From assembly GCA_963793265.1 (NCBI GenBank), contig CAWBZI010000006.1:608001-672000 (forward strand): 64,000 bases of DNA, written 5' to 3'. The notes under the pieces were generated by a model that saw nothing but the letters and a program-made list of their open reading frames with translations, was not told the origin of the DNA and searched no databases. Source of the stretch: an uncultured cyanobacterium. GTDB taxonomy: Bacteria > Cyanobacteriota > Cyanobacteriia > Phormidesmidales > Phormidesmidaceae. A program made the translations under genes and the position numbers. Shown piece after piece: positions 1,398 through 64,000 of this stretch; within the stretch, counting starts at the first letter, position 1; each line of letters begins with the position of its first letter.

Positions 1398-2642
1398 CTA
1401 TGAATTAGGCCGCTGAGTCGCAGCCGGATCGGGCTCTACGGTCGTAACTTGGCCAGGCGGCGATACTGACGACGAGCCGTACATCTCCGCTTCCTGACGA
1501 ATTCTCTCGTCCACTTCCAACTGCGGGTAAGTTGCTGACGGCGTAGGTTTGCCAAAGAGCGATCTGAACTGATCTACCGCTCGATACCGCGCCCAGCCAA
1601 CAATTCCATCGGGCAGCACCGTTACGACAATCAAGAACAAAGCACCCTGGAAAAACAGCCAAATCGTCGGATAGTTTTCACTCAGTAGCGCCTGCCCGCC
1701 GCGCACCGCTAGCGCACCAACAATCGCGCCAATCAGCGTACCGCGACCGCCCACCGCCACCCAAATCACCATCTCAATCGAGAAAGCAATATCCATATAC
1801 TGCGGCGACACAATCCCCGATTGCACCGTATACAGCGCCCCCGCAACCCCAGCAATACCGCCCGAAACCGCAAACACCAGCACCTTAAACGCCGTTGGAT
1901 CGTAGCCTGAAAATCGCAGCCGGTTCTCGTCGTCCCGAATTGCAATCAGCATTCGCCCAAAGCGCCCACTGGTTAGCCAGCGACATAGGCCGTATGAGAG
2001 CGCCAGCATCAGCACCGTTATGCAGTAAAAAGTAAACTGCATGTTGTCGCCACCGACTGACTGACCAAACATCGTGGCTGTATTTGTCTTTAGGCCGTTG
2101 GTGCCATTAATTAGCTCTTGCTGACCGTTGAAGAAGTTAAAAAAGACGACTAGCGCGGCCTGCGTGAGGATAGAGAAATAGACGCCGCGAATGCGGTTGC
2201 GAAACACCAGGTAGCCGAGCGCGCCAGCAATCAGCGTTGGAATTAGGAAAATTGCAATTAGCGTGAAAGGGAATGAGTAAAACGGCTTCCAAAACCACGG
2301 TAGCTCGGAGACACCGTACAGGCTAAAGAAATCAGGAATACCGTCTCCGATGCCTTGCAGTTGCAAGAACATGGCAAAGGCATAGCCGCCAAGGGCAAAA
2401 AATATGCCGTGTCCTAAGCTAAGTAGGCCGGTAAAGCCCCAGATTAGGTCAATGCCTAAGGCGACGATTGCCAAAGAGAGAAAGCGACTGAAAAGACCTA
2501 AGCGAAAGTTTGAAATAAATGAGGGGACTACGAAGATGAGAATGAGGGCGATCGCACACACCGCAATCACCTCTAACCGCTTCCGCCCCTTTGCCTTTTT
2601 AGGCGCAGTTGAAATGCCCGAATCTGTTACAACACCAGCCAT
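1398..2642 (-). CDS. urtC: Urea ABC transporter permease UrtC
   Basis: LivM-like permease (GIDLIWGFTGLLSLGHG, AIRDDENRLRFSGY); operon context. Confidence 0.95.
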   Translation of the reverse strand: MAGVVTDSGISTAPKKAKGRKRLEVIAVCAIALILIFVVPSFISNFRLGLFSRFLSLAIVALGIDLIWGFTGLLSLGHGIFFALGGYAFAMFLQLQGIGDGIPDFFSLYGVSELPWFWKPFYSFPFTLIAIFLIPTLIAGALGYLVFRNRIRGVYFSILTQAALVVFFNFFNGQQELINGTNGLKTNTATMFGQSVGGDNMQFTFYCITVLMLALSYGLCRWLTSGRFGRMLIAIRDDENRLRFSGYDPTAFKVLVFAVSGGIAGVAGALYTVQSGIVSPQYMDIAFSIEMVIWVAVGGRGTLIGAIVGALAVRGGQALLSENYPTIWLFFQGALFLIVVTVLPDGIVGWARYRAVDQFRSLFGKPTPSATYPQLEVDERIRQEAEMYGSSSVSPPGQVTTVEPDPAATQRPNS

Positions 2643-2644
2643 CT

Positions 2645-3817
2645 CTATACCTCCGCCGAGCGGCCTTTAGGCGGAAATAGTCCCGCCGGGCGCACCTGTA
2701 AAAACACAATAATCAAGGCAAACACCATCACTTTTGCCATGCTCGTTGTCGCAAAAAAGTTAAAGAAGTCCGTCACCGGCTGCAAGCCTTCATAAGAACT
2801 CAGCAGCAGCGGCACCGTTCCTGAACCCAACAAGTAGGTCAAAACGCCAATGGCCAGCGCTGCAATCACGCTACCCAACAAGTTTCCAACACCGCCTACC
2901 ACCACGACCATAAAGGCGTCCACAATATAGTTCACGCCTAAGTTTGGCCCCACAGAGCCCAGCAGCGTCACCGCAAATCCAGCGACACCTGCTAATCCTG
3001 AACCCAGCGCAAACGTCATCGCATCGACTTGAGCGGTTGGAATACCTAAGCAAGCGCTCATATCCCGGTTTTGAGTCACCGAGCGAATGCGTAAGCCCCA
3101 AGCTGATTTTTGTAAGAACCAATACACGCCAATTAAACACAAGATCGTCAGCGCAATGATAAACAATCTAGAGATTGGAAACTGTAGCGTATCGCTCGCC
3201 GAAAAGCTCCCCTGTAGCCATCGGGGCGCAGTAACGTCCACATTGCGCGTGCTGAACCAGGGTTTTGCCAGGTCTGCATTGTCGTTAAGGCCGTTGCCGA
3301 ACGTCCAGGCGATCGCCCCCGACAGCAAAAACAGCACCGTACTCGCCAAATTCTGCCTGGGCGCACTCAGCCGAGCAAAGCGATCCAGCAGCCATTTACC
3401 GCCAAAGAACAGCCCGCAAAACAGCACCAGCCCCACGACCATCGACCAGCTCACGCTGCGCACAAACTGTCGCAAAATCAGGCTCACGCCCCAGGTTGCC
3501 AGCAGCGTCTCCAAAGGCCGTCCGTACAAAAAGCGAATCACCCCACGTTCTAAAGCCAGCCCCACCAGCGCTGCCACCAAAAAAGCCAGCGGAATCGCCG
3601 CCCAAATATACAGATCTTGCCAGCCCTCCCCCAGCTCCTTGAAGCCGCTTTGCACCACATATGTCGTATAGGCACCTAGCATCATCAGCTCGCCGTGCGC
3701 CAAATTGATCACGCCCATCAGACCAAACACAATCGCCAGTCCGAGCGCCACAATTAACAGCACCGTGCCAATGCTAATGCCGTTAAATACCGTCGTAATT
3801 AACCCGTTTAAATCCAT
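2645..3817 (-). CDS. urtB: Urea ABC transporter permease UrtB
   Basis: LivH-like permease (GLMGVINLAHGELMMLGAY, LYGRPLETLLATWG). Confidence 0.95.
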   Translation of the reverse strand: MDLNGLITTVFNGISIGTVLLIVALGLAIVFGLMGVINLAHGELMMLGAYTTYVVQSGFKELGEGWQDLYIWAAIPLAFLVAALVGLALERGVIRFLYGRPLETLLATWGVSLILRQFVRSVSWSMVVGLVLFCGLFFGGKWLLDRFARLSAPRQNLASTVLFLLSGAIAWTFGNGLNDNADLAKPWFSTRNVDVTAPRWLQGSFSASDTLQFPISRLFIIALTILCLIGVYWFLQKSAWGLRIRSVTQNRDMSACLGIPTAQVDAMTFALGSGLAGVAGFAVTLLGSVGPNLGVNYIVDAFMVVVVGGVGNLLGSVIAALAIGVLTYLLGSGTVPLLLSSYEGLQPVTDFFNFFATTSMAKVMVFALIIVFLQVRPAGLFPPKGRSAEV

Positions 3818-3946
3818 TCCAGCAGCTCTCGTTTTTTGTGTTGATCGCTCACTTTCGCACCTATATAAAAGGGCCGAAAGTCTTAAAAAACCTCCAGCCC
3901 TTCATCGTCAACCTGGCAGAATATCTATCCCAACCAACATACCGAC

Positions 3947-5257
3947 CTAGATTTCCTCAGCCTTGTACTTACCACCCTTCTCAGCATCAGACCAGTCACA
4001 GGCGTAACCCTTTGTGTCTGCAACATACTGATTCCAGGGAATTGGATCTAGCGGCCCATCGGTAGCAGAAACAATATCAAAGAGGCCGTCTTCGCGCACT
4101 TCACCAATTCGTACCGTCTTAGAAATATGGTGGTTAGGCTGCATGGTCACAAGACCTTCAGGCGCATCAAACGTTTGGCCATAAGCCGCCTCACGCACAG
4201 CCGCAATATCTGTTGTACCCGCCTGCTCTACAGCCTGCGCCCACAGATACACCATAATGTAGGCCGCTTCCATCGGGTCATTCGTCACCCGATCGTCGCC
4301 GTACTTCGCCTTAAAGTCAGCCACCCACTTTTCATTCTCAGGGCTCTCAACCGTTTGGAAGTAGTTCCAGGCCGCGTAATGACCTTCTAAAAACTCAGGC
4401 CCAATTGTCCGAACTTCTTCTTCTGCAATACTGACCGACATCACAGGATACTGGTCAGGCCCCATGCCCGCACTCTTCATTTGCTTAAAGAGAGCAACGT
4501 TGCTGTCGCCGTTCAAGCTGTTGAAGATAACGCCGCCATTCGGCATCGCCTGCTTAATTTTATTGATAATCGGTGTGACTTCCGAGTTACCCAAAGGCAA
4601 GTAGTCCTCACCGGCAACCGTGCCACCGTTTGCAGCTAGCTGCTCTTTAATAATATTGTTCGCAGTGCGCGGGAATACATAGTCAGAGCCGACTAAAAAG
4701 AACTCTTTTCCCTTGTTCTCTAGCAGCCAGTCCACCGCAGGCTCAATCTGCTGGTTAGGTGCTGCGCCCGTATAGAAAATATTTTTAGAACACTCCTGGC
4801 CCTCGTACTGTACGGGGTACCAAAGCATGTGGTCTTTTTCTTCAAACACAGGCAGCACGGCTTTGCGGCTAGCCGATGTCCAGCAGCCAAACACCACGGC
4901 AACTTCATCTTGATCAATTAGCTTCTCTGCTTTCTCTGCAAAGGTAGGCCAGTCAGAAGCGCCGTCTTCTTTAACCGCAACAATTTGCTTTCCCAGCACG
5001 CCGCCAGCAGCGTTAATCTCTTCAATCGCCAGCTCTTCAGCATCGACGACGGTGGTTTCACTAATCGCCATCGTGCCGCTCAAAGAGTGCAAAATGCCGA
5101 CCTTAATCACATCATCGCCACCGGCTGCAACGGTCGTTGCATCACTACCGGCATCTGCTGCGGGCTCGCTGCCGCCACCACAGGCGTTTAATAATACGCT
5201 GGCACCCGCTGCTGCTGAGGTGAATGCCAGAAATTTACGTCTACCAAGTTTTCCCAT
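3947..5257 (-). CDS. urtA: Urea ABC transporter substrate-binding lipoprotein UrtA
   Basis: [34 protein letters not shown] motifs. Start placed at ATG 5257 ([14 protein letters not shown], a twin-Arg/lipobox signal). Confidence 0.96.
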
Positions 5258-5348
5258 TAACCGATCTCGAACTCCCTTAAAATCATGCTTAAAACAGATG
5301 CCCAGTCGCGCTTTGCAAGGTATAAGCGCTTTTACTGATCGTGGGGGT

Positions 5349-5390
5349 ATCGTATGGCTCCAACATCGCCAAAGTTGTATCACAAGATAC
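5349..5390 (-). promoter_or_regulatory. Canonical NtcA-activated promoter of urtABCDE
   Basis: GTA-N8-TAC site (5377-5390; minus strand GTATCTTGTGATAC), then exactly 22 nt, then a TAN3T -10 box (TACGAT, 5354-5349). Confidence 0.92.
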
Positions 5391-5442
5391 GAAATATGAT
5401 TACGTTCCTGTAATTGAGCGATCGCCTTCTAGCACAAATCCT

Positions 5443-7179
5443 CTAAAACAAAAAATAACGCTGTGCCATGGGCAGCACATCGGCAGGCTCGCAAGTCAGC
5501 AGCTTGCCATCGACCCGCACCTCAAACGTTTCCGGCGTCACCTCAATGTTGGGCAGCGTTCCATTCAGCTTCAGATCAGTTTTTTTCACAGCCCGCGTAT
5601 CAAACACCGGACGCAGCCTTTTTGCATTCAAGCCCACCTGTTCGGCAATGCCTAAATCCATCGCTGCTTGGGAAACAAAAGTGTAGGCAGTGCTAGCGAT
5701 CGCCTTCCCGTAGCTGCCAAACATGGGCCGCATATACACTGGCCCCGGCGTTGAAATACTCGCATTGGCATCGCCCATCTGCGCCCAAGCAATAAAGCCG
5801 CCTTTGACAACAATATCTGGCTTTACGCCAAAGAAAGCGGGATTCCACAGGCAAAGATCGGCCAGCTTGCCTTCTTCTACTGAGCCGACACAGTGAGAAA
5901 TGCCGTGTGCGATCGCTGGATTAATCGTGTACTTCGCCACATACCGCTTAGCCCGATAGTTATCATGCGTCTCACCGTCATTCTCAGGATTCGGCAGTAG
6001 CCCCTTCTGCACCTTCATCTTGTGCGCCGTCTGCCACGTCCGCGTAATCACCTCACCCACTCGCCCCATCGCCTGTGAGTCAGAAGCCATAATACTAAAA
6101 GCCCCCATGTCATGTAGCAAATCCTCAGCGGCAATTGTCTCACGCCGAATCCGAGACTCTGCAAACTTCACATCTTCAGGAATGTTTTTATCGAGGTGAT
6201 GGCACACCATCAGCATGTCTTTGTGCTCATCAAAGGTGTTGATGGTATAAGGCCGCGTTGGATTAGTAGAGGCGGGTAGAACATTGTTGTATTTGCAAAC
6301 CGTGAGAATATCAGGAGAGTGCCCGCCGCCTGCGCCTTCAGTGTGAAAAGTATGAATCACCCGATCTTTAAAGGCCGCAACTGTCGTTTCAACAAACCCA
6401 GACTCATTCAAGGAATCGGTATGAATCGCCACCTGCACATCGTATTCATCAGCCACAGTTAGGCAGGTATCAATCGCCGCTGCCGTGGTGCCCCAGTCTT
6501 CGTGCAGCTTCAGACTCATCGCCCCCGCCTGCACCTGAGCCACTAGCTCTTGAGGCTGACTAGAATTGCCCTTGCCCATAAAGCCAAGGTTCATCGGGAA
6601 AGCTTCAGCCGCTTCTAACATGCGGTGAATGTTCCAAGCGCCGGGTGTACAGGTGGTTGCCAGGGTGCCTGTCGCTGGGCCAGTGCCGCCGCCGAGCATG
6701 GTGGTGACGCCGGATGCGATCGCCACCTCAATCTGCTGCGGACAAATAAAGTGAATATGCGAATCAATCGCCCCTGCCGTTAAGATCTTGCCCTCACCCG
6801 CAATAATCTCCGTACTCGGCCCAATAATAATGTCAATATCGTTTTGCGTATAAGGATTACCCGCCTTTCCGATTTTGGCAATATTGCCATCCTTAATCCC
6901 CACATCCGCCTTCACCACGCCCCACCAGTCTAAAATCAGCGCGTTCGTAATCACCGCATCCACCGCGCCATCTTCTCTAGAAATTGGCGACTGACCCATA
7001 CCATCGCGAATCACCTTACCGCCGCCAAACTTCACCTCGTCGCCGTAGTAGGTGCCGCCGTAGGTTGTCAGGTCTTGTTCCACTTCAATGAATAGTTCGG
7101 TATCGGCTAGGCGAATGCGATCGCCCACCGTTGGCCCAAACGTATCAGCATAATCTCGGCGGCTAATGTAATTACTCAT
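5443..7179 (-). CDS. ureC: Urease alpha subunit
   Basis: [65 protein letters not shown] at 7179 (GTG at 7182 is an alternative). Confidence 0.98.
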
Positions 7180-7189
7180 CACTCACTCA
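7116..7189. repeat. Direct repeat copy 1: ureC 5' end plus 10 nt of leader
   Basis: 74 bp; matches 8005-8078 with 2 mismatches. Confidence 0.95.
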
Positions 7190-7339
7190 ACCATAAAATT
7201 TAGAAGAACAGTTCAGACGGCGTTTATTTAAACAGCATCTTAGGTAGGCAAAAGAATCGTATCTTTCTAAGGGACGCATGAAAAGCTGAATGCAATCAAT
7301 GAATAGGGCTTCATCAGTTTTCTATGATTTTCTAGGACA

Positions 7340-7357
7340 TAACACATATGTTACTAT
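7340..7357 (+). promoter_or_regulatory. Putative TA operator and -10 box
   Basis: Inverted repeat TAACA-CATA-TGTTA (7340-7353) overlaps TACTAT (7352-7357), 6 nt before the toxin ATG. Confidence 0.6.
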
Positions 7358-12490: not shown

Positions 12491-13927
12491 ATGGTATCTA
12501 CACAAAATGATTCGCTCAGAGTAGACGTTGCGCTTACATCAAAAGAAGCAGCTCACACGTTGAACACTGCGCCCGCTACCAACTCGTTGACAGTTGCCGA
12601 AGACGAGTATGGGCTACTGACTGACCTGTATCAGCTCACGATGTCGGCCTGCTACGCCGGGGAAGATCTGCATCAGCGGCTTGCTAGCTTTGAGCTATTT
12701 ACCCGTAAGCTACCAGCAGGCTACGGCTATTTAGTCGCGATGGGTCTGGAGCAAGGGCTGGAATATTTAGAGAAGCTGAGCTTTAGTCCAACCCAGATTT
12801 TACATTTGCAGAGAACAAGGATTTTTGAGCACGCGCCCGATAGCTTTTGGGGGATGCTGGAAGATTTTCAGTTTGAAGGCGATGTGTGGGCGGTACCTGA
12901 AGGCACACCAATATTTGCGAATGAGCCGATGCTGCGAATCCAAGCGCCGCTATGGCAGGCGCAGATTGTAGAAACTTATCTGCTCAATACGCTGAACTAT
13001 CAAACCCTAATTGCAACGCGGGCGGCGCGGCTGAGGCAGGCGGCCGGGCCTGATGCGAAACTGTACGAGTTTGGCACCCGGCGAGCCTTTAGCCCGCAAG
13101 GATCGCTTTGGGCAGCGCGGGCGGCTTTGGCAGGCGGACTCGATGCAACCTCTAATGTGCTCGCGGCGCTCAAGCTAGGCCAGCAGCCGGTCGGAACGAT
13201 GGCGCACGCGCTGGTGATGGCAGTTTCGGCCTTGGAAGGCAGTGAAGACAGCGGGTTTGAGGCTTTTCATCGCTATTTTCCTGGCGCGCCTCTATTAATA
13301 GATACCTACGATACGACAGCAGCAGCGGAGCGGCTGGCGAAAAAGGTGGCCGATGGAATGCCTTTGAAGGGCGTACGGATTGATTCAGGGGATTTGGGTG
13401 AGATGGCAAAGGTGGTGCGATCGCATCTCCCCAACACACCCATCTTTGCCAGCGGCGATCTCGATGAGTATGCGATCGCACACCTCCGCCAAAACAACGC
13501 CTGCATCGATGGCTACGGCCTCGGCACAAAGTTGGTCACAGGCTCACCTGTTAATGGCGTCTATAAATTAGTGGATATTGATGGCACGGCAGTGATGAAA
13601 GAATCTAGCGGGAAGGTGACTTACCCAGGGTGCAAGCAGATTTTTCGGCAGTATGAGGGCGGGCAGATTGTGGGCGATCGCCTAGCGCTTAATATTGAAG
13701 CCTCCTACGAGAACGAGCAGCCCTTACTTCAGCGGGTGATGCACAACGGACGCAGGCTTGCAGAGGCTCCAAGTTTAGAAGACATTGCCAAACGTGCGAC
13801 CAAAGCTGTAGCGGCACTACCGGAATCTGTGCGTAGGTTGCAGAAGGCAGAAGCCGCTACCGGTAGAAATCTCTCATGGATTAGACAATCTTCTAGAATC
13901 AACTCGGCGAAAATGATTATTAGATAG
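12491..13927 (+). CDS. pncB: Nicotinate phosphoribosyltransferase (C-terminal tail probably frameshifted)
   Basis: LLTDLYQLTM, EFGTRRA, GTMAH, LIDTYD, GVRIDSGD, GVYKLV. Confidence 0.95.
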   Translation: MVSTQNDSLRVDVALTSKEAAHTLNTAPATNSLTVAEDEYGLLTDLYQLTMSACYAGEDLHQRLASFELFTRKLPAGYGYLVAMGLEQGLEYLEKLSFSPTQILHLQRTRIFEHAPDSFWGMLEDFQFEGDVWAVPEGTPIFANEPMLRIQAPLWQAQIVETYLLNTLNYQTLIATRAARLRQAAGPDAKLYEFGTRRAFSPQGSLWAARAALAGGLDATSNVLAALKLGQQPVGTMAHALVMAVSALEGSEDSGFEAFHRYFPGAPLLIDTYDTTAAAERLAKKVADGMPLKGVRIDSGDLGEMAKVVRSHLPNTPIFASGDLDEYAIAHLRQNNACIDGYGLGTKLVTGSPVNGVYKLVDIDGTAVMKESSGKVTYPGCKQIFRQYEGGQIVGDRLALNIEASYENEQPLLQRVMHNGRRLAEAPSLEDIAKRATKAVAALPESVRRLQKAEAATGRNLSWIRQSSRINSAKMIIR

Positions 13928-13965
13928 GCGCATTTGTTTAACTGTTGTTTAGCTATTTTTTTACT

Positions 13966-14604
13966 ATGGCTTTTTGGATAAAACCAGCACGAGTTGCGCT
14001 CTTTGGAACTAGCGCCGATCCGCCGCATGTTGGACACCAGAGTATTTTGACCTGGCTAGCTGAAGACTTTGATCAGGTGGCGGTATGGGCGGCTGAGAAT
14101 CCGTATAAGAAGAAGCAGTCTCCTCTGGGCGATCGCGCCGAAATGCTGCGGCTACTGATAGAGACTTTGCCAAACAAAGAGAGCGTAGAGGTGTATCAGA
14201 GCTTGAGCGATCGCTACAGTATTCACTCAATTGCGCGTGCGCGTCAGATCTGGCCAAACGCACAATTCACGCTTGTTGTCGGCGCTGATTTAGTTGAACA
14301 GTTGCCTAAGTGGTACCAGGCCAAAGAGATCTTTGAGCAGGTTGAAATACTGGTGTTCCCACGTCCCGGCTATACCATTGGCGGGCCAGCTTTAGCAGCG
14401 CTACAACAGCAGGCCACCGTCACCATTGCGCATCCGCCAACCCAATACAACATTGCCTCTAGCAGCTATCGTGCCACCAACTGTAGTGAAGTACCAGACG
14501 ATCTCCCACCCGTCATTCAGCGCTATATTAGCGAGCACGACCTGTATCCCTGCTTACACACCCCACACACCGCCCCCAAAGAACAAGTCTCGTCGCACCG
14601 ATAA
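13966..14604 (+). CDS. nadD: Nicotinate-nucleotide adenylyltransferase
   Basis: ALFGTSADPPHVGH (HxGH), VVGADL..LPKWY, IASSSYR. Confidence 0.9.
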   Translation: MAFWIKPARVALFGTSADPPHVGHQSILTWLAEDFDQVAVWAAENPYKKKQSPLGDRAEMLRLLIETLPNKESVEVYQSLSDRYSIHSIARARQIWPNAQFTLVVGADLVEQLPKWYQAKEIFEQVEILVFPRPGYTIGGPALAALQQQATVTIAHPPTQYNIASSSYRATNCSEVPDDLPPVIQRYISEHDLYPCLHTPHTAPKEQVSSHR

Positions 14605-14625
14605 AGCCGCTGGCAACCGTTCGCT

Positions 14626-15381
14626 ATGAAACCCACCACCATTCACCTCACCAACCCACTCGCACCATCGTCACCTGTCGCAGAACTCGCTGACTTCAAA
14701 GTAGGGGTAGATACCGTCATTTTTTCAGTAGATACTGAACAAAACCGACTGCTGGTGCTGCTAGTCATGCGGCACGAAGACCCGCACAGCGGCTACTGGA
14801 GCTTGCCAGGCACTTTAGTGCAAGTCGGAGAATCATTAGAAGCTGCTGCCGATCGAGCGCTGACCGAAAAGATTAGGGTGAACAACCTCTATTTAGAACA
14901 ACTCTTTACCTTTGGCGGGCCTAATCGCGACCAGAGAGAGGCCAAAGATGCCTATAACGTTCGCTATCTTTCGGTCAGCTACTTCGCCTTGGTACGCTAC
15001 GAAGACACCGCACTAATCGCTGATGGCGTCAGTGGAATCGCCTGGTATCCACTCAACCGCGTACCCAAGCTCGCCTTCGACCACAATCAAATTTTGACCT
15101 ACGGCTACCAAAGGTTGCGTAACAAGCTCGAATATAGTCCGGTTGCCTTTGACGTACTGCCTGATACCTTTACGCTAAGCGATGTTTATCAGCTCTATGC
15201 AACGGTGTTAGGAGAAGACTTTTCAGACTATTCAAACTTTCGCACAAGGCTGCTGAAGCTGGGAATTTTGCAAGATACGAAAGTGAAAACATCGAGAGGC
15301 GCAGGGCGTCCGGCAAGCCTGTACCGATTTGATGCAGAGGCTTTTGAACCACTTAAAAACAAACCGATGGTATTCCTGTAA
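14626..15381 (+). CDS. nrtR: NUDIX plus winged-HTH transcriptional regulator NrtR
   Basis: WSLPGT...ESLEAAA, LEQLFTFG, LAFDH, FTLSDVYQLY, SNFR, GAGRPASLYRF. Confidence 0.92.
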   Translation: MKPTTIHLTNPLAPSSPVAELADFKVGVDTVIFSVDTEQNRLLVLLVMRHEDPHSGYWSLPGTLVQVGESLEAAADRALTEKIRVNNLYLEQLFTFGGPNRDQREAKDAYNVRYLSVSYFALVRYEDTALIADGVSGIAWYPLNRVPKLAFDHNQILTYGYQRLRNKLEYSPVAFDVLPDTFTLSDVYQLYATVLGEDFSDYSNFRTRLLKLGILQDTKVKTSRGAGRPASLYRFDAEAFEPLKNKPMVFL

Positions 15382-15416
15382 AAGAGATATTTAAGAGAGA
15401 CACTAAGAGATATTTT

Positions 15417-17159
15417 ATGAAGATTGCGATCGCTCAGCTCAACCCCACCATTGGCGACATTTCCGGCAACGCCGACCAGATTCTCTCAGCCGCCCAAGCA
15501 GCAGCAAACCAAGGCGCTGACCTGCTGCTCACCCCTGAGCTTTCCCTATGCGGCTATCCCCCCCGAGATCTCCTCATGCGGCCTAGCTTCGTTCAACAAA
15601 TGGCACAAAAAGTAGCTGATATTGCCAAAGCGCTACCGCCGACGCTCACGGCCTTAGTGGGCCTTGCCGCCGCCAATAAAAACGCTCACCTAAAAGGAGA
15701 GAAACCTGTTTACAACAGCATGGCGCTTTTGCACTCAGGGAAAGTTCAAGCAATCTTTCACAAGCGTTTGCTACCGACCTACGACGTGTTTGACGACGAT
15801 CGCTACTTTGAATCAGGCACTCAGGCCAATAGTTTCACCTTGAAGTGCAAAAGCGGCGCTGTTCATATCGGCGTCACCATCTGCGAAGACCTTTGGAACA
15901 GCGAAGACTTTTGGGGCAAACGCGCCTACCCAATAGATCCGACCAAAGAGCTGGTTGAAAAGGGCGTAGATCTGGTTGTGAACTTGTCAGCATCCCCTTT
16001 TATTGTGGGCAAGCAGTCTTTAAGAGAGCGGATGATTGCACATGCAGCCAAGCAAAACGAGTGCCCTATTGTCTATGTCAATCAGGTTGGCGGCAATGAC
16101 GATTTAATCTTTGACGGTCAGAGTATCGCGGTTGACCGTAAAGGAGAATTAGTCAGCCGGGCTACAGCCTTTGAGAGTGATTTTCAAACGCTAGAATTTG
16201 ACATGGGCTCGAAAGACTTACGCAAAGGTGAGGTGAAAGAGATGCCCGCTGTAGCAGAAGCTGAAATTTGGGCGGCGCTGGTGCTAGGCGTGAAAGATTA
16301 TGCGCGGAAGTGTGGCTTTAGTAAGGCAGTGATTGGCTTAAGTGGTGGTGTAGACTCTGCGGTGGTGAGTGCGATCGCAGCTACCGCCCTTGGCCCCGAA
16401 AACGTACTTGGCATCCTCATGCCCTCCCCTCACAGCTCCGACCACTCAATTAGCGACGCCCAACAGCTTGCAGATAATCTAGGCATCACCACCCAGACCA
16501 TTCCTATTGGCACCCTGATGGCAGGCTACGACAGTACGCTAGATAGTTTATTCGCAGGCACCGAAAGCGGCGTCACCGAAGAAAACTTACAGTCCCGAAT
16601 TCGCGGCAACTTGCTGATGGCTATTAGCAATAAGTTTGGTCATTTGCTGCTGACAACAGGAAACAAATCGGAAGTCGCGGTCGGCTACTGTACGCTGTAT
16701 GGCGATATGAACGGTGGGCTAGCGGTGATCGCAGACGTGCCAAAAACGCGGGTGTATTCACTTTGCCGCTGGCTGAATCACGAGCGTGAAATTATCCCGA
16801 GCAACATTATCACCAAGCCGCCCAGCGCAGAACTCAAGCCAGGTCAGGTCGATCAAGACTCTCTACCTGACTACGATATATTAGACGATATTCTTGAGCG
16901 CTTAGTGCAAAAGCAACAGTCCGCAGAAGATATTATCGCGGCGGGCCACCCGGCAGAAGTTGTGAAAAGAGTGATTCGGCTAGTGACACGCGCGGAGTTT
17001 AAGCGGCGGCAGTCCGCACCTGTGCTAAAAGTCACCGATCGCGCTTTTGGCATGGGATGGCGAATGCCAATTGCGAGCCGATGGGCATTAGAGATTCCCG
17101 GCAATGAAGCGGTTAACGTACGTTCAAACCAGAATGCTAAGGAACTCGCATCAAAATAG
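15417..17159 (+). CDS. nadE: Glutamine-dependent NAD+ synthetase
   Basis: Nitrilase domain (PEL, KRLLPTYDVF, ICEDLW) plus GLSGGVDS, GNKSE, PPSAEL, EFKRRQ. Confidence 0.97.
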   Translation: MKIAIAQLNPTIGDISGNADQILSAAQAAANQGADLLLTPELSLCGYPPRDLLMRPSFVQQMAQKVADIAKALPPTLTALVGLAAANKNAHLKGEKPVYNSMALLHSGKVQAIFHKRLLPTYDVFDDDRYFESGTQANSFTLKCKSGAVHIGVTICEDLWNSEDFWGKRAYPIDPTKELVEKGVDLVVNLSASPFIVGKQSLRERMIAHAAKQNECPIVYVNQVGGNDDLIFDGQSIAVDRKGELVSRATAFESDFQTLEFDMGSKDLRKGEVKEMPAVAEAEIWAALVLGVKDYARKCGFSKAVIGLSGGVDSAVVSAIAATALGPENVLGILMPSPHSSDHSISDAQQLADNLGITTQTIPIGTLMAGYDSTLDSLFAGTESGVTEENLQSRIRGNLLMAISNKFGHLLLTTGNKSEVAVGYCTLYGDMNGGLAVIADVPKTRVYSLCRWLNHEREIIPSNIITKPPSAELKPGQVDQDSLPDYDILDDILERLVQKQQSAEDIIAAGHPAEVVKRVIRLVTRAEFKRRQSAPVLKVTDRAFGMGWRMPIASRWALEIPGNEAVNVRSNQNAKELASK

Positions 17160-34700: not shown

Positions 34701-34913
34701 AAGCTATGAGTATCAGGTGAACGGTGCCTTGAATTACCTTTTGTAAAATTGGCGTCAAGGTCATTACGAATTTAAGTATACCGCTCATGCTTTTCAAGTG
34801 GCACAACTATTAAAAAGGCCGCTGAAACGGTGTTCAGGATGACGGCGCTCATGTATTTTGTAGAACGCACGTATTCAATTGGGCGGCTCAAATTCAGCGG
34901 CGTTTACATCTCT

Positions 34914-38298: not shown

Positions 38299-38379
38299 TG
38301 CGCCAGTATCCATCTCACGCGCTTAAGCGCAATTCTCTCTCATATTCTGTTGTTTTACTGACCCCACAGGCTCTTTCAC

Positions 38380-43299: not shown

Positions 43300-45020
43300 G
43301 CTAGTGCCCCCTCTGCCGTGCTGCCTTCAGGATTGCCCACCGGATGCCCGGCAGGCTCATTAGACACCAGCGGTTCATCGCTGCCATACCCGTACGGCGG
43401 CGACACCACAATCGGAATCTCTTCAAAATTCTCATGCGGCGGCGGCGAAGACACCAGCCACTCCAGTCCAATCGCTCGCCACGGATTATCACCCGCTTCT
43501 TCACCGCGTACCCAAGAACTCAGCATGTTCAAGATAAAGGGCAAGGTCGAAACGCCGAGTAAAAAGCCGCCGAGACTTGCAATCACGTTATAGAAGGCAA
43601 ACTCAGGATCGTAGGAAGCCACGCGCCGGGGCATTCCCATCAGGCCCAGCGGGTGCATCGGCAAAAAGATCATGTTAATGCCGATAAAAGTGAGCGCAAA
43701 GTGCAGCTTGCCTAAGCCTTCGTAATACATCCTTCCTGTCATCTTCGGGAACCAGTGATAGATCGCCGCATAAAAGCCCATCACCACCGCACCGTTGATC
43801 ACGTAATGGAAGTGACCCACCACAAAATATGTGTTGTTGACGTGGATATCAAACGGCGTTGAGGCCAGCATGATGCCGGTAATGCCTGCAAACAGAAACG
43901 TTGTCAGTCCGCCTAAAGCAAACAGCATTGCCGAGGTCAGCCTGATTTTACCGCCCCACACCGTCGCCACCCAGGCAAACACCTTAATCCCGGTTGGAAT
44001 TGAGATTGCCATGGTGGTGAACATGAACAACATCCGCATCCAGCCGGGCGTACCGCTAGCAAACATGTGGTGCACCCACACCACCAAGCTAAACAGCGTA
44101 ATCAGCAAAGAAGAGATCGTAACGACCCTATAGCCAAAAAGTGGCTTGCGAGAGTACACCGGAAAGACTTCGGAGAACACTCCGAAGATCGGCAGGATAA
44201 TCACATATACCGCTGGGTGAGAGTAGAACCAAAAGAAGTGCTGATACAGCACCGGATCGCCGCCGCGAGTAGGGTCAAAAAAGCTTGTGCCCACCGTTAA
44301 ATCGAGCAGCAGCATTACCGCTCCTGCCGTTAGGGCAGGCAGTCCAATGAGCTGAATGAGCTGCGCTGATAGCACCGTCCAGCAAAAAGCAGGCATTCTG
44401 AACCAGCTCATCCCCGGCGCGCGCATTCTGAATATAGTGGTGACAATATTCACCGCGCCCATAATAGAAGACACGCCCGATAGCGCCACCGCCACCAGCC
44501 AAAGCGCCTGCCCGTTGATCAAATTGCCAGTGGGATTTTGCAGGCTTACGGGCGGATAGGCCCACCAGCCAGATTGCGAAGGGCCACCGGGAATGAAGAA
44601 GCTAGCGATCAGGATGACACCGAATACAGGCACAAGCCAGAAGGCCACTGCGTTCAATCTTGGAAAGGCCATATCCCGCGCCCCGATCTGCAACGGCACC
44701 AAATAGTTCGCCAGCCCGTTCAGCATTGGAAACGTCCACATGAACAGCATAATTGTGCCGTGCATCGTGAACAAACCGTTATACACCGTGCGATCTACCA
44801 GGTCTGGCTCAGGGGTAATTAGCTCACCGCGCATCACCATCGCCAGCAGCCCGCCAAACAAAAAGAAGGCAAAGGCCGTGACAATATACTGAATGCCAAT
44901 CACCTTATGGTCGGTGCTAAAGGTGAAAAACCGCCGCCAGTTGTCAGGGGCTCCCGGCTCAGGCGTCAGGTTTTGCTGTGGCTGGTCAGGCTTTACCTTC
45001 TCCAACGTTGCATTACTCAT
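43296..45020 (-). CDS. ctaD: Heme-copper oxidase subunit I
   Basis: TDHKVIG, HGTIM, WFYSHPAVY, WVHHMF, GHFHYV, GMPRR. Confidence 0.96.
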   Translation of the reverse strand: MSNATLEKVKPDQPQQNLTPEPGAPDNWRRFFTFSTDHKVIGIQYIVTAFAFFLFGGLLAMVMRGELITPEPDLVDRTVYNGLFTMHGTIMLFMWTFPMLNGLANYLVPLQIGARDMAFPRLNAVAFWLVPVFGVILIASFFIPGGPSQSGWWAYPPVSLQNPTGNLINGQALWLVAVALSGVSSIMGAVNIVTTIFRMRAPGMSWFRMPAFCWTVLSAQLIQLIGLPALTAGAVMLLLDLTVGTSFFDPTRGGDPVLYQHFFWFYSHPAVYVIILPIFGVFSEVFPVYSRKPLFGYRVVTISSLLITLFSLVVWVHHMFASGTPGWMRMLFMFTTMAISIPTGIKVFAWVATVWGGKIRLTSAMLFALGGLTTFLFAGITGIMLASTPFDIHVNNTYFVVGHFHYVINGAVVMGFYAAIYHWFPKMTGRMYYEGLGKLHFALTFIGINMIFLPMHPLGLMGMPRRVASYDPEFAFYNVIASLGGFLLGVSTLPFILNMLSSWVRGEEAGDNPWRAIGLEWLVSSPPPHENFEEIPIVVSPPYGYGSDEPLVSNEPAGHPVGNPEGSTAEGALA

Positions 45021-59200: not shown

Positions 59201-59212
59201 AAAATTCTTGCT

Positions 59213-60742
59213 ATGAAACAAATTCGAGACGGTAAGGTTACAGTCCTCTGCGCAATGTGCCTGGCGCTGTTTATGACTAACTTCAACGCCACCGCAGCAG
59301 ATGTGGCCCTGCCTCAAATGCAACAGAACTTGGGCGCTGACATGCTTGGGGTGCAGTGGATTCTAAACGCATACCTTTTACCCGTTGCCAGCCTGCTATT
59401 GGTGACTGGCAAACTAGGCGATAGGTACGGTCGCAAGCGCATATTTTTAGCCGGTATTCTACTATTTAGCATCGCCACCGTAGTCTGTGGGCTCGCGCCT
59501 AACTTAGCCGTGCTGATTGTTGGACGCGGTTTGCAAGGCATCGGTGCAGCGGCGGTAATTCCTTTATCGCTCACGATTGTGACGGCGACCTTTAGTGACC
59601 ATCAGGCGCGGGCAAAAGCAATTGGGATATGGTCGGCAGTTTCAGCGATCGCACTTGTCGCGGGCCCCGGCTTAGGCGGCTTTTTGGTAGACGGCTTAGG
59701 CTGGCGCAGCATCTTTTTTATTACGCTTCCTTTAGGCTTAGTCACGTTTGCGATGACGGCTCGGGCCTTTAAAGAACAATTAAGAGAAAAAGCTGTGGTT
59801 AGCTGGGTTGGGTTGGGGTTGAGTGTGGTTGCGATCACCTCCCTTGTATACGTTCTCACCCAGGGCAGCATAGCAGCCTGGCAATCCACCCGAACCCTCG
59901 GCCTACTCACTATTACCGGCCTCAGCTTCACCGCCTTCTGGCAGGTCAACGCCCGCAGCAACACGCCCGTCATTCCACCAACTCTGCTTAGAAACAGAAA
60001 ATTCCTCACGCTCTGCTTCGTACAAACCTTGGTTTTCTTCACCTCTGGCGGATTGTTCTTCATTCTGAGCTTGTTCTTACAGCAGGTTCAAGGCTATTCC
60101 GCTGCCGCTACCGGCCTGTGCTTCATCCCGATGAACATCGCAATCGTTTCAGCCTCCTTCGCCTCCGGGTGGATTGCGGCCAAGCTAGGCTGGCGCTTCC
60201 CCATTCTCAGCGGCCTTACAATTGCGAGCATTGCACTATTCTCACTCACTCGCATCAGCATCAATACGCCCTACCTCACCACGCTATCGACCCTCATATT
60301 CTCAGGATTCGGCGGTGGCCTGACCATCGCCCCCCTCGCTGCTGCCGCGATGAATTCCGTACGTCCGGTAGAAGAAGGCATCGCCTCAGCCGTTTCGAGC
60401 ATCAGCATTCAATTTGGCGGCATTCTAGGCATTGGCTTACAGGGTGCGCTGTTCTCAGGCAGGCTCACCGCTGCGCTAAAAGACACAATGCTCGACTGGA
60501 ATTTATCGTCCGATCTCCAAGAGAAAATTTTAGCGGACGGCATCCAAAACCTGTCCAATTCCCCTGTTAATTTACCGCCCACCCTCTCTTCAGCAGCATT
60601 AGAACAAGCGGTCAAACTAGCGTTCGTCTCAGGGCTACAGTCCGTAGTACTCATAGCCGCGCTCTCACTGGTTTTCGGCGTACTACTCATATTTACCTTA
60701 GTTCCTTCAATCGTTCGGTCTTCTGTCCATGAACAAGTTTAA
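59213..60742 (+). CDS. DHA2 MFS efflux transporter (paralog)
   Basis: GKLGDRYGRKR, GRGLQGIG, GWRSIFF. Confidence 0.92.
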   Translation: MKQIRDGKVTVLCAMCLALFMTNFNATAADVALPQMQQNLGADMLGVQWILNAYLLPVASLLLVTGKLGDRYGRKRIFLAGILLFSIATVVCGLAPNLAVLIVGRGLQGIGAAAVIPLSLTIVTATFSDHQARAKAIGIWSAVSAIALVAGPGLGGFLVDGLGWRSIFFITLPLGLVTFAMTARAFKEQLREKAVVSWVGLGLSVVAITSLVYVLTQGSIAAWQSTRTLGLLTITGLSFTAFWQVNARSNTPVIPPTLLRNRKFLTLCFVQTLVFFTSGGLFFILSLFLQQVQGYSAAATGLCFIPMNIAIVSASFASGWIAAKLGWRFPILSGLTIASIALFSLTRISINTPYLTTLSTLIFSGFGGGLTIAPLAAAAMNSVRPVEEGIASAVSSISIQFGGILGIGLQGALFSGRLTAALKDTMLDWNLSSDLQEKILADGIQNLSNSPVNLPPTLSSAALEQAVKLAFVSGLQSVVLIAALSLVFGVLLIFTLVPSIVRSSVHEQV

Positions 60743-61859
60743 CTTTGAGCCTCATCTCATCGACTCAGACCTACCCAAACGCCGCTTTTACGCTCAAACT
60801 GCCCTGGCCGACTTAGACAACGACGGCCGGTTAGAGGTAATTATGGGTCAGCGCCACGGCAACATTTACTACTACAAATATCACGACAACAAAACATGGT
60901 CGCGTCATCTGCTGGGCAAAAACTCACCGTCAGACGTCGGAGCCTGCGCCTTTGATGTAGACGGCGATGGCTGGATAGACTTTGTAGCGGGCGGGGCATG
61001 GTATCAAAACTCTCGCGATCCTAATAAGCCCTTTACGCGGCATGTGTTTGATCGGCGGCTCAAAGCTGTTCATGATTTAGTAGCGGCTGATATTGATGGA
61101 GACGGACAAAAAGAAGTGCTCACTATGTCTGATAAAAACAATTTGCGCTGGTACAAAGTGCCGGTTGATCCAACCCAACCTTGGATTCGGCATGATATTG
61201 CGACTTCTGTTCATGCTGGACTCAGCGTCGGAGATATTGACGGCGATGGCGATTTAGACATTGTGCGAACGGATATATGGCTTGAAAACATCAGAGGTGA
61301 CGGTACGCTTTGGGTAGAGCATCCTATTGGGCCAAGTACACCGCCGCCGAAAGACTTTCGTCCGTCGTATGCGTTTAATGCAACCTGTAGCGTGGTGTGC
61401 GATGTGAATAAAGACGGTAAGAACGACGTTGTTTTTACTGACTCAGAGATTCCGGGCGGGCAGGTGTGGTGGATGGAGAATGTGGATGGTAAGGGGCGCG
61501 AGTGGCGGCGGCATGAGATTTATTGCCGTGGGGATGAGCCTAGACGGGGGGCGTATCACAGCCTTTTTGTAGGCGATTTGGATGGCGATGGTGACTGGGA
61601 TGTTTTTAGCTGTGAGATGGAGGCGGTGAGCGGTGAGGAAGGGCCGCGTTTTTATATTTGGGAGAATGTGGATGGCTACGGGCAAGCGTGGAAGGAGCAC
61701 GTCATTTTAGATGTAAATTTGGGGGGACATGCAACTCTCGTGGGCGATATTTCGGGAAATGGGTGGCTAGATATGTTTACGAAGCCCTGGCGCGCGAGTC
61801 GGAAGAATGCGCTGGGGGGGAAGATGTATGCAATGTTTTTGGAGAATATTGGGTGGTAG
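60729..61859 (+). CDS. FG-GAP/VCBS repeat beta-propeller protein
   Basis: About seven DxDxDG-type repeats (DLDNDG, DVDGDG, DIDGDG x2, DVNKDG, DLDGDG, DISGNG); no obvious signal peptide. Confidence 0.85.
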   Translation: MNKFNFEPHLIDSDLPKRRFYAQTALADLDNDGRLEVIMGQRHGNIYYYKYHDNKTWSRHLLGKNSPSDVGACAFDVDGDGWIDFVAGGAWYQNSRDPNKPFTRHVFDRRLKAVHDLVAADIDGDGQKEVLTMSDKNNLRWYKVPVDPTQPWIRHDIATSVHAGLSVGDIDGDGDLDIVRTDIWLENIRGDGTLWVEHPIGPSTPPPKDFRPSYAFNATCSVVCDVNKDGKNDVVFTDSEIPGGQVWWMENVDGKGREWRRHEIYCRGDEPRRGAYHSLFVGDLDGDGDWDVFSCEMEAVSGEEGPRFYIWENVDGYGQAWKEHVILDVNLGGHATLVGDISGNGWLDMFTKPWRASRKNALGGKMYAMFLENIGW

Positions 61860-61860
61860 C

Positions 61861-64000
61861 CTAAACCAACATTAAGAACAACTTAATCAGTAGCTGGGTT
61901 CGATCTAAAGGCTTACCTAAACAGGCAGAGGCACCATACCACTTTGCTTTGAGTCTTGTAAACCAGTTTGCCTTCGGCACCATCAGTAGAATAGGAACCG
62001 TGCGGAAGGTGGGATTTTTGCGGAGGCGATCGCACACCTCAAACGCATTTAACCCCGGCATAGAGGTCGTGAGCAAAATAATATCTGGCTGATAATACAC
62101 CAAATCAGTCAGCGCCGTGACCGGATCATCAACCGGCAATAGAGAGAAAACAGTATCGCCTAGATAGTTGTGAATGTTGCACAGCGTTGGAAAGTCATCT
62201 TCAATGCAGGCAATGGTGTAAACCGTTTTCTCGGGCTCGCTGAGCCTATCTGGCTGCGGCTTAATTGCGATCGCTGCTGACGTTTTCATAGCTTCTCTCC
62301 TTTCACTATCATCTATAGGCGCTGAATCTCTTGAGGCCAAATCTTTCGAGGCTAGATCCTTCACCGCCAAAAGCTTATCTTTGTGCTGAGACTCAGTGAT
62401 AAAAGGCGATCCCTCGGGCTGCGCCCCCCCATAGGCATAGGCCAAATTGCTATCTAATCGTCGGTTAAACAACTGCCCTATTTTGTAAGTCCAACGGCCC
62501 AAACGCTGCTGCAATCCGGCGATATAGGTAAAGCAAACGGGTACGACGACTAACGTTAGCAAGGTTGCCGTTGAAAAGCCACCAATGACTGCGATCGCCA
62601 TCGGACTTCTCACCTCTCCGCCCGCCCCTAGCTCCAAGGCAATCGGCACCATGCCCGCCACAGTAGAAATCGAGGTCATCAAAATAGGCCGTAGCCGGGT
62701 AACGCCCGAAGAAATTGCCGCCTGCTTCAAAGACTGACCGCTCTCTTTCGCCTGCAACGCATAGTCCACCAGCAAAATAGAGTTTTTAGTCACCAGCCCC
62801 ATCAGCAGCACAATACCGATAAGCGCGTAAAGATCGAGCGGTTTGTGCGTGAGCATCAGGGCAATGAAGGTGCCGCCAATGCTGAGGGGCAGCGCTGACA
62901 TGACTGCTAAAGGGTAAATAAAACTGTTGTACAAAAGCACCAGTACCGCGTAGATCATGACGATAGCAGTGCCAAGGGCGATCGCGAACCGACTAAACAC
63001 ATCTTGCAAAATATCGGCATCGCCAGCAGTTTGCTCGCTCACATCGTCAGGGAGATTCTGCAAAACAGGCAGCGCATAAACCGCATCTAGCGCCTGGCCT
63101 AAGCTAATGCCCTGGAGATTTGCGCCCACCGTAACCTGACGGGCGCGATCGAACCGTTCAATTTCAGCAGTGCCGCCGCCGATAGAGACTTCGGCTACCG
63201 CCGAGAGCGGCACAAGCTGCTGCCGGTTGCTGGCGACTTGAATATTGCTGATAGCCGCCAGGTCTGTTCTAAACTCGGGGGCGAGCCGGGTACGGATAGG
63301 AATTTGGCGATCGCCCGCATCAATTTCAGACAGGTTAGCATCGCGATCGCCCAGAGTCGCCAGTGTCGCCGTCGTCGCAATATCCCTCAGCTTCACGCCC
63401 AAATCCGCCGCCTGCTGAGCATTGGGCCGAATCAACAGTTCAGGCTTTACCAGCCCAATACTCGTACTCACCTCCACCAGTCCGGGAATCTCTCGCATCT
63501 GCTGCGCGAGCTGATTAGCCGTTTGGTTTAAGCTTTGCGGATTCGCACTTTTGAGCACTACGCTAAACGCCTCAGAGCCCCCGCCCGGACTCTGGTTGTC
63601 AAAGCCGAATCGAATATCTGGCACCCTTTGCAGTTGCCCTCTCACTTGCTGCTCAAAATCTTGCCGAGAAATATCACGTTCTCCCTTTGGCTTCAGACGA
63701 ATCACCATCTCCGACTCGTCTACATTTTGAGCCACATAAACGCTTTCGACCGCTGGATGCGTTAGCAGGCGATCGCTCAGTCCCCGCGTAATCTCATCGG
63801 CCCGCTCAAACGTGGTTCCCGGCGGCAGCTCAATTTTCAGTTGCGAGAGATCCGTATCACCTGCGCCGTAAAGTCCCGTTGGAATATGTGGAATCAGCGC
63901 CAGGCTAGAAGCAAAAATTGCGATCGCTACTCCTAAAGTCACCAGCCGATGCCGCAACGCTCGCCCCAAAAGCCATCGATAGCCCCCTCTTTGCGATGTA
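61861..64000 (-). CDS. AcrB-family RND efflux permease (5' part outside the window) with C-terminal receiver-like domain
   Basis: GIVLLMGLVTKNSILLVD, RLRPILMTS, PMAIAVIGG; frame is open to the window edge; tail IACIEDD...PDIILLT..MPG...GKP. Confidence 0.92.
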   Translation of the reverse strand, partial: TSQRGGYRWLLGRALRHRLVTLGVAIAIFASSLALIPHIPTGLYGAGDTDLSQLKIELPPGTTFERADEITRGLSDRLLTHPAVESVYVAQNVDESEMVIRLKPKGERDISRQDFEQQVRGQLQRVPDIRFGFDNQSPGGGSEAFSVVLKSANPQSLNQTANQLAQQMREIPGLVEVSTSIGLVKPELLIRPNAQQAADLGVKLRDIATTATLATLGDRDANLSEIDAGDRQIPIRTRLAPEFRTDLAAISNIQVASNRQQLVPLSAVAEVSIGGGTAEIERFDRARQVTVGANLQGISLGQALDAVYALPVLQNLPDDVSEQTAGDADILQDVFSRFAIALGTAIVMIYAVLVLLYNSFIYPLAVMSALPLSIGGTFIALMLTHKPLDLYALIGIVLLMGLVTKNSILLVDYALQAKESGQSLKQAAISSGVTRLRPILMTSISTVAGMVPIALELGAGGEVRSPMAIAVIGGFSTATLLTLVVVPVCFTYIAGLQQRLGRWTYKIGQLFNRRLDSNLAYAYGGAQPEGSPFITESQHKDKLLAVKDLASKDLASRDSAPIDDSERREAMKTSAAIAIKPQPDRLSEPEKTVYTIACIEDDFPTLCNIHNYLGDTVFSLLPVDDPVTALTDLVYYQPDIILLTTSMPGLNAFEVCDRLRKNPTFRTVPILLMVPKANWFTRLKAKWYGASACLGKPLDRTQLLIKLFLMLV

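Follow-up and report, generated by a model that had tools for sequence, protein, structure and literature searches.

A 64-kb stretch of DNA from an uncultured cyanobacterium (positions 608001-672000 of contig C6, accession CAWBZI010000006.1, of the source genome G000; this whole stretch is hereafter the window) is dotted with the palindromic octamer HIP1 (GCGATCGC). Around these copies, in the window as in the 5.68-Mb genome to which it belongs, each DNA strand is G-rich on the 5' side and C-rich on the 3' side. This footprint is real and very strong, and it is anchored on HIP1 itself; it has a fixed polarity, is independent of genes, depends in cis on the presence of the octamer, and consists of a C-specific change in composition. 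It may have been left by a strand break at HIP1, followed by 5' to 3' removal of one strand and by cytosine loss on the strand thereby exposed, a sequence of events to which we give about an even chance.

The window holds 85 copies of HIP1, against 1.9 expected from shuffles. When the excess of G over C was compared between the left and right flanks of 90 nucleotides (nt), 66 of the 83 scorable sites showed a flip from G-rich to C-rich and 17 the opposite, with a median difference of 12 across the 83, while 5,000 random positions leaned one way in 46.8% of cases and the other way in 48.6%. The flip had been pointed out in an earlier note on this DNA from examples chosen by eye, a choice that is not its source, since scoring every site gives 66 of 83 in the window and 81.4% in the genome. 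The six hand counts of that note, made at sites 16371, 26276 and 35470, were reproduced exactly, and all 12 sites that it named, including the variant GCGATCAC at 59831, lean as claimed over 50-nt flanks, the lean being weak at 6716, 46611 and 62026. Its two long tracts were found as well, with 177 G and 286 C in 59840-60700 and 168 G and 55 C in 61450-61860. The features concerned, in window coordinates, are the following.

1-64000, either strand: 85 HIP1 sites, each a candidate anchor of a switch from G-rich to C-rich sequence, read on either strand.
16321-16430: flip at HIP1 16371-16378, inside a plus-strand NAD synthase gene (15417-17159; Pfam NAD_synthase), with 21 G and 5 C upstream, 8 G and 23 C downstream.
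26221-26330: flip at HIP1 26276-26283, inside a minus-strand protein kinase gene (25132-26652; Pfam Pkinase), with 27 G and 2 C, then 6 G and 15 C.
35411-35530: flip at HIP1 35470-35477, inside a plus-strand open reading frame (ORF; 34830-35888), with 24 G and 8 C, then 4 G and 20 C.
59831-59838: GCGATCAC, a flip-bearing putative C-to-T decay product of HIP1, with 18 G and 3 C upstream, 10 G and 20 C downstream.
59840-60700: long tract rich in C that follows the 59831 variant on its 3' side and forms the opening half of a sawtooth of 2.2 kb, which ends at HIP1 62026.
61450-61860: long G-rich tract 5' of HIP1 62026, the second half of the same sawtooth.
31650-31657: HIP1 that is polymorphic in nature, a near-identical metagenome strain having C>T at 31651, which gives GTGATCGC.

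Around HIP1 16371, the third positions of codons change from G/T-ending to C/A-ending. The substitution at 31651, which appears among the 40 listed of 297 variant places, was seen in a single contig of metagenome run X1 at a depth of 10.4.

Genome-wide, HIP1 occurs in 6,888 copies, against 307 for the word read backwards, at a median spacing of 585 bp. Averaged over 6,881 to 6,887 sites, the plus-strand GC skew, (G-C)/(G+C), changes sign at HIP1, namely, from +0.36 to -0.36 at 1-5 nt, from +0.18 to -0.19 at 11-20 nt and from +0.06 to -0.08 at 76-100 nt, and reaches the baseline by about 300 nt; the T/A skew flips in parallel and much more weakly. Taken one by one, 81.4% of 6,887 sites are positive and 16.7% negative, and the share of flipping sites lies between 81% and 85% on all seven contigs, each on its own baseline skew. 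These baselines differ, for instance between contigs C4 (+0.044) and C6 (-0.033), and the flip is offset accordingly (+0.150/-0.052 on C4; +0.090/-0.155 on C6). A clean origin/terminus pattern of skew at the scale of replichores was absent from 50-kb windows of the genome.

The flip belongs to the octamer. First, none of the 63 other 6-mer palindromes shows such a flip when copies within 300 bp of a HIP1 are set aside; values run from -0.06 to +0.02 for those present at least 100 times, and -0.002 was obtained for the 530 copies of CGATCG that are not part of HIP1. Second, HIP1 reached z=75 among the 103 8-mer palindromes with at least 25 copies, the next best reaching z=2.1. Third, a scan that made no use of motifs returned 179 sharp G-to-C junctions, of which 141 have HIP1 within 30 nt and 15 more a decay variant of the form GYGATCRC, where 6.4% would be expected from background; the offset between HIP1 and junction has a median of -1 nt and an interquartile range of -3 to +3. 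Equally sharp C-to-G junctions numbered only 31, and HIP1 was found at 0/31 of them.

Among the 12 pairs of variants with one mismatch, GTGATCGC/GCGATCAC alone retains the flip, the other 11 being near zero. This pair, at 386 copies lying at least 300 bp from any HIP1, shows +0.094/-0.098, with 74% of copies flipping. It is also the commonest decay variant: 766 copies were counted, as compared with 348 and 243 of two further C-to-T variants. The cytosine changed to T in it is the one given as methylated in the literature; we read copies of this pair as probable HIP1 sites that decayed recently. The natural polymorphism at 31651 is this same change.

A hairpin or inverted repeat centred on HIP1 was considered and rejected, since mirror positions can pair at a frequency of 0.254, versus 0.2545 with permuted pairing; the flanks are not mutually complementary, and thus the flip is not a hairpin. 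Several side observations concern the sites themselves. In the whole genome, the two bases next to HIP1, one on each side, match as complements at a frequency of 0.193, below the 0.267 predicted from composition; extension of the palindrome to 10 bp is thus avoided. Spacings below 100 bp make up 8.2% of all, versus 11.4% from random scatter; the density of HIP1 is about twofold higher in coding DNA than in spacers (1.29 vs 0.69 per kb); and 2,974 of the 6,350 coding sites use the preferred frame GCG-ATC-GCN.

The anatomy of the flip was resolved with the 4,794 genes (86-88% coding) of a crude ORF caller. At fourfold-degenerate sites, the skew at 11-20 nt is +0.447/-0.467 in plus-strand genes and +0.463/-0.484 in minus-strand genes, and it is therefore as independent of the coding strand as the earlier note had held. 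Codon positions 1 and 2 shift by about 0.065, versus 0.41 at fourfold sites, on which ground amino-acid composition was rejected as the cause; proteins are nonetheless bent, with Met, Glu, Val and Gly raised before HIP1 and Thr, Asn, Pro and Ile after it (log2 0.3-0.5), a change in amino-acid usage that is a consequence of the flip. The three findings that the earlier note had named as fatal to its claim can thus be answered together: the sign does change at HIP1 in a meta-plot of all sites, control 6-mers and 8-mers lack the flip, and the signal is strongest precisely where amino acids are indifferent.

Between neighbouring HIP1 sites the skew takes the form of a sawtooth that crosses zero at mid-interval. 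The decay was followed in 309 isolated flanks, those with no further HIP1 within 3 kb. Here the fourfold skew starts from 0.63 at 5 nt, has dropped to 0.47 by 50 nt and to 0.15 by 350-575 nt, and still amounts to 0.05-0.10 at 0.9-1.4 kb; two scales describe it, about 75 nt and about 970 nt (roughly 1 kb). The flip also crosses from one gene into the next without loss: the fourfold skew in the neighbouring gene across a spacer is 0.256, versus 0.259 in the same gene, at 61-100 nt, and 0.105 versus 0.101 at 201-300 nt. Since neighbouring genes are equally skewed, spacers flip too and G and C behave as mirror images, the process acts on DNA, is blind to genes and their boundaries, and does not operate on mRNA.

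Dependence on HIP1 was assessed at orthologous positions. The closest genomes that we compared with G000 are 74-76% identical to it; for one of them, G001, 400 kb were aligned to G000, giving 270 kb of alignment at 74% identity, with the following result.

HIP1 in both genomes (189 positions): 88% flip in G000, 80% in G001.
HIP1 in G000 only (105 positions): 78% flip in G000, 45% in G001.
HIP1 in G001 only (115 positions): 54% flip in G000, 69% in G001.

The flip at conserved HIP1 sites is about twofold stronger than at lineage-specific ones. Thus, the flip tracks the genome that has HIP1: what it follows is the word, rather than gene or protein, and it becomes stronger as a site ages. HIP1 sites are themselves conserved between G000 and G001 beyond neutral expectation, 189 of 294 aligned G000 sites (64%) being HIP1 also in G001, at a fourfold identity of 41-43%.

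The change in composition is simple, as seen from base frequencies at fourfold sites.

Before HIP1: A.185, C.131, G.443, T.242.
After HIP1: A.185, C.450, G.136, T.229.
Far from HIP1: A about.20, C about.28, G about.25, T about.27.

Near HIP1, A and T are nearly unchanged. At twofold sites, C makes up 27.5% of C/T before HIP1 and about 60% after it, and G makes up 66% of A/G before and 36% after. A model in which all C>N changes are multiplied by 1.56 and all G>N changes by 0.54 on the 5' side fits the fourfold frequencies with a sum of squared errors of 2e-5, and on the 3' side the same model is mirrored, with 0.57 and 1.32. It also predicts usage at twofold sites, at 0.660 versus 0.658 observed for R-ending codons and 0.387 versus 0.323 for Y-ending ones. 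Models restricted to transitions, namely, C>T alone or C>T plus an A>G asymmetry, were rejected, with errors of about 0.02, some 1,000-fold worse. The asymmetry is thus specific to cytosine and guanine and includes transversions.

The mechanism that we favour starts from HIP1 as the point at which a frequent, polar process on the DNA itself would begin. A strand would be broken there, by a nick or as part of a double-strand break, and the strand running 3' from HIP1 would be removed 5' to 3' and later resynthesised. Meanwhile the complementary strand, which on its own strand is the stretch 5' of HIP1, would be single-stranded or serve as the sole template, and its cytosines would be lost faster, whether deaminated or damaged in another way and then miscopied, whereas any damage to the removed strand would be erased. 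Over evolutionary time each strand would thus be depleted of C and enriched in G on the 5' side of HIP1, with the reverse on the 3' side, and the effect would fade with distance as fewer removed tracts extend that far (scales of about 75 nt and about 1 kb). The palindromic nature of HIP1 would subject both strands to this, giving the sawtooth between neighbouring sites. The C-poor strand is the one 5' of HIP1, which is the sign expected if the other strand is cut at HIP1 and removed 5' to 3'; an origin-like or Okazaki-start role of HIP1, we infer from the same logic of exposure, would give the opposite sign.

The earlier note had proposed a polar process of this general kind, starting at HIP1 and leaving a directional footprint, and every sequence test that we ran agrees with it, be it anchoring, blindness to genes, dependence on HIP1, sign or the C-specific change. 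Polarity and anchoring thus stand, while the weakness of the flip between genes and the existence of HIP1-rich genomes that lack it qualify the proposal. These and other points weigh against the mechanism set out above. First, the break, the removal of a strand, the damage chemistry and the skew as their by-product are what we infer, the public data being assembled metagenome contigs, which carry no molecule ends. Second, intergenic skew at 11-20 nt is +0.09/-0.15, versus +0.45/-0.47 at fourfold sites, and spacer skew amounts to about a quarter to a third of fourfold skew whether HIP1 lies in a gene or in a spacer. A pure mutation bias predicts equal strength at unconstrained sites, so this deficit requires strong constraint or fast turnover of spacers, either of which could explain it; since tracts pass through spacers, the deficit is local. 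Third, a C>N model is mathematically equivalent to a fixation bias or to selection against C, and composition alone thus cannot separate mutation from selection. Fourth, the genes rest on a crude caller. Fifth, searches for restriction-type genes, RecC, Vsr and MutH brought up no candidate for a HIP1 nuclease.

Sixth, the flip is patchy among cyanobacteria. Pieces of 40-400 kb were sampled from 32 other genomes of the class, of which five had at most one HIP1 and 27 could be scored. A clear flip (72-82% of sites) was found in six of the 27, namely, with flipping sites given before the others, G132 (252:55), G001 (338:112), G028 (46:14), G033 (35:9), G053 (43:17) and G082 (13:3). Eight fell in between (60-66%; G018, G021, G063, G023, G024, G037, G076 and G116), a group that is uncertain since 40-kb samples are small. 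The remaining 13 showed no flip (42-59%), among them G014 (122:96), G016 (78:72) and G017 (274:279), the last despite 2.9 HIP1 per kb. Most of the sampled HIP1-rich genomes outside the source genus show little or no flip, and contrasts occur within families, with 55% in G046 against 81% in G000 (family f1) and 77% in G028 against 49% in G124 (family f16). HIP1 alone is thus not sufficient, the flip is not a general property of HIP1, and a factor that varies between lineages is needed; under the favoured mechanism this would be the responsible enzyme.

Two of the genomes with little or no flip at HIP1, G018 and G020, differ in the word itself. There, ACGATCGC/GCGATCGT is nearly as common as HIP1, with 177 versus 199 copies in G018 (contig C6, 1-300000) and 123 versus 210 in G020 (contig C1, 1-200000), and the iterated word seems, from these counts, to be looser at its outer positions. 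The ratio of the C-to-T decay variant to other variants was tried as a proxy for methylation across genomes and abandoned, the counts in 40 kb being too small and the ratio being confounded by the lineage-specific abundance of ACGATCGC-type words.

A different origin of the skew could lie in post-replicative mismatch repair directed by HIP1. As put forward by Elhai (2015; PMC4390886, in its accessible text), a nick would be made at G-m5C (m5C being 5-methylcytosine), with a reach of about 1,000 nt. A MutH-like enzyme would nick the new strand at hemimethylated G-m5C, and if excision ran only 5' to 3', replication errors would be corrected on one strand per side, so that the uncorrected errors of the other strand would build up skew. 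In line with this idea, the flip requires both outer bases of the octamer, G and C, being absent at CGATCG alone and at ACGATCGC-type variants; the footprint reaches about 1 kb; and the commonest decay variant is the C-to-T change at the reportedly methylated cytosine (766 copies vs 348 and 243). The spectrum does not fit, however: uncorrected errors are mainly transitions at all four bases, whereas models of transitions fare about 1,000-fold worse here and A and T hardly change. Moreover, MutH (PF02976) was not found in G000 (98.97% complete), although the positive control from E. coli was matched, and the introduction of GBE 2026 (PMC13756078), as far as its accessible text goes, states that no MutH is known in cyanobacteria. 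We regard this explanation as unlikely.

Selection on the skew itself, for instance to keep the flanks unstructured when single-stranded or to set up zones prone or resistant to R-loops, is in our judgement quite unlikely. It would agree with a per-nucleotide skew that differs little between coding DNA taken whole (+0.18 at 11-20 nt) and spacers (+0.09 to +0.16), as though each region had to reach a set value and did so mainly at silent sites, with a change in composition that amounts to a simple preference for G and against C, and with the bending of protein composition before and after HIP1. Yet the 13 sampled HIP1-bearing genomes without a clear flip, most of them with 1-3 sites per kb of the sampled piece, show that HIP1 does not need it, and decayed sites retain it. 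The skew at lineage-specific sites is about half that at conserved ones, as slow accumulation predicts. Residual fourfold identity near HIP1 is slightly lower, not higher (0.138 vs 0.157 in the comparison with G001; 0.166 vs 0.200 with G132), which argues that there is no added constraint. Uniform weak selection would also affect unconstrained spacer sites equally, and so it leaves the spacer deficit unexplained too.

HIP1 might instead act as a palindromic counterpart of Chi, where breaks occur anywhere and a helicase-nuclease degrades DNA up to HIP1 and from there on leaves a 3' single-stranded tail. The polarity of such a tail is identical to that found here, and Kamoku and Nielsen (bioRxiv 10.1101/2024.09.10.611283), in the accessible part of their preprint, report that homologous HIP1 raises transformation more than 100-fold and discuss a Chi-like role. 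The footprint should then grow with the interval on the entry side, but from 0-100 nt to more than 1,600 nt of distance to the neighbour on the opposite side the flank skew runs 0.295, 0.279, 0.285, 0.268, 0.237 and 0.274; this independence fits initiation at each HIP1 site. As for the machinery, RecC (PF04257) was found in 0/28 cyanobacterial genomes, G000 included, and no AddAB-sized PD-(D/E)XK protein was seen in G000, where the family model PDDEXK_1 matched only ORFs of 284, 199 and 241 amino acids, although an unknown machine is conceivable. According to the same preprint, again in its accessible part, deletion of addAB in PCC 7002 left the effect of HIP1 on transformation in place. This makes a Chi-like origin of the skew very unlikely.

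The reverse order of events, in which G-to-C junctions arise otherwise and HIP1 is preferentially created at them, is highly improbable. The halves of the octamer do share the polarity of its flanks, with a G-rich left and a C-rich right half, but by our estimate the composition of the flanks raises the chance of a HIP1-like word only about 1.3-fold, whereas 87% of the sharpest junctions have HIP1 or a decay variant within 30 nt and HIP1 is centred on them within about 3 nt. An orthologue that lacks HIP1 shows no junction (45% and 54% flipping), and we know of no other process that makes such junctions inside genes. Finally, an effect of transcripts or translation on codon choice around HIP1 in the mRNA, which would suit the constant order of G before and C after in mRNA coordinates and the weaker flip in spacers, is scarcely credible, since the flip enters neighbouring genes unweakened, is present in spacers at all, and is mirror-equal (G before and C after,.443 vs.450; C before and G after,.131 vs.136), as fits a symmetric process on DNA.

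Returning to break and resection at HIP1, we looked for enzymes that might carry them out. A RecJ-type 5' to 3' exonuclease domain is present in G000, and also in genomes without the flip. G000 has seven or eight m5C methyltransferase genes, and restriction-type genes adjoining three of them were considered, and rejected, as a shared HIP1 nuclease, being not common to the other flipping genomes. Namely, an HNH neighbour had matches at E ~1e-30 only in G018 and G024, a weak one in G001 (1e-7) and none in G132; neighbour proteins of 261 and 265 amino acids were found in 0/5 flipping genomes; and a SinI-type and a broken SmaI-type system have other specificities. A further neighbour is 189 amino acids long. 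Very-short-patch repair was discarded as well, as Vsr (PF03852) was not found in G000 and the footprint is far longer than a very short patch.

As a side observation, the broken SmaI-type restriction-modification system (G000, contig C1, 810031-812443; locus L070) is decayed, with two in-frame stops in its methyltransferase and a SmaI-like endonuclease split into ORFs of 120 and 200 amino acids. The hexamer CCCGGG is very rare, with five copies at least 300 bp from HIP1, and so are GGCGCC (three), GCCGGC (five) and GAGCTC (six). The genes of the window (1398-7182, 12491-17159, 36562-40194 and 43296-45020) are ordinary ones, encoding parts of a urea ABC transporter, the urease alpha subunit, nicotinate phosphoribosyltransferase, NAD synthase, two flavodiiron proteins and cytochrome oxidase subunit I.

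These cyanobacterial cells are presumably polyploid. It is tempting to speculate, as a possibility that we hold only tentatively, that in some lineages HIP1 is a site of programmed self-incision, where a lineage-variable nuclease would cut or nick, RecJ-type resection would follow and repair would draw on another copy of the chromosome. If so, HIP1 would be a bacterial counterpart of the meiotic recombination hotspot, driving constant gene conversion among genome copies, and recombination-dependent replication might start from it, in keeping with the absence of a clean replichore skew from G000. From the flank skew one could then read, over the whole genome, how often each site initiates and how long its tracts are, and phylogenetic profiling could, given the patchy occurrence of the flip, lead to the enzyme.

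Three decades after HIP1 became known, its function was still called elusive in the accessible text of GBE 2026 (PMC13756078). We found no published description of a strand asymmetry flanking it in the open full-text literature, which leaves subscription journals aside, and none is given in the accessible text of Elhai 2015 (PMC4390886), Xu et al. 2018 (PMC5861425) or GBE 2026 (PMC13756078). The polar footprint is thus a new class of evidence, absent from the HIP1 papers that we searched, which indicates that something acts on DNA at HIP1 in these lineages and gives its direction, strand and tract length. The proposals of a Chi-like site, of mismatch repair and of a transformation signal now predict different maps of DNA ends, mutation spectra and gene associations, and HIP1-rich genomes with a strong flip and without one form a natural contrast set for finding the enzyme. 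There is also a practical side: within about 100 nt of some 6,900 sites, codon choice and, to a lesser extent, amino-acid choice depend on the distance to HIP1, and analyses of codon usage, selection and horizontal transfer in such genomes should take this distance into account.

Among known systems, the GC skew associated with replication and the sawtooth N-domains of mammals consist of a strand asymmetry in G/C, and more weakly in T/A, whose sign reverses abruptly at defined points, after which it returns gradually. The HIP1 flip shares such a strand-asymmetric switch of sign, but the jump is from positive to negative, as at a terminus and not at an origin, the period is about 0.8 kb over some 6,900 sites and not megabases, and G000 has no clean skew at the scale of replichores. 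Chi, with RecBCD or AddAB, is likewise an over-represented short word linked to recombination, and the polarity of its tail is the same; however, Chi is asymmetric and unmethylated, whereas HIP1 is palindromic and its footprint does not scale with the catchment interval. The model of Elhai (PMC4390886, in its accessible text) concerns the same word and agrees with the flip in the need for the outer G and C and in a reach of about 1 kb, whereas the C-specific spectrum with transversions is unlike that of uncorrected replication errors, and MutH was not found in G000.

Closest, in our view, are the hotspots of human meiotic double-strand breaks, around whose resected flanks Hinch et al. (2023; PMC7615360, in its accessible text) describe strand-asymmetric mutation. 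The two cases differ in kind, since there new mutations arise at PRDM9/SPO11 hotspots of a eukaryote, whereas here a standing bias in composition surrounds an 8-bp palindrome that a bacterium carries some 6,900 times; furthermore, A>N changes are minor at HIP1, and SPO11, REV1 and APOBEC have no known counterparts here. In both, nevertheless, a mirror-image strand asymmetry is centred on a defined site and, at the hotspots, extends over 1-2 kb, and the polarity and the dominance of cytosine loss reported in the accessible text of that study match those of the HIP1 flanks.

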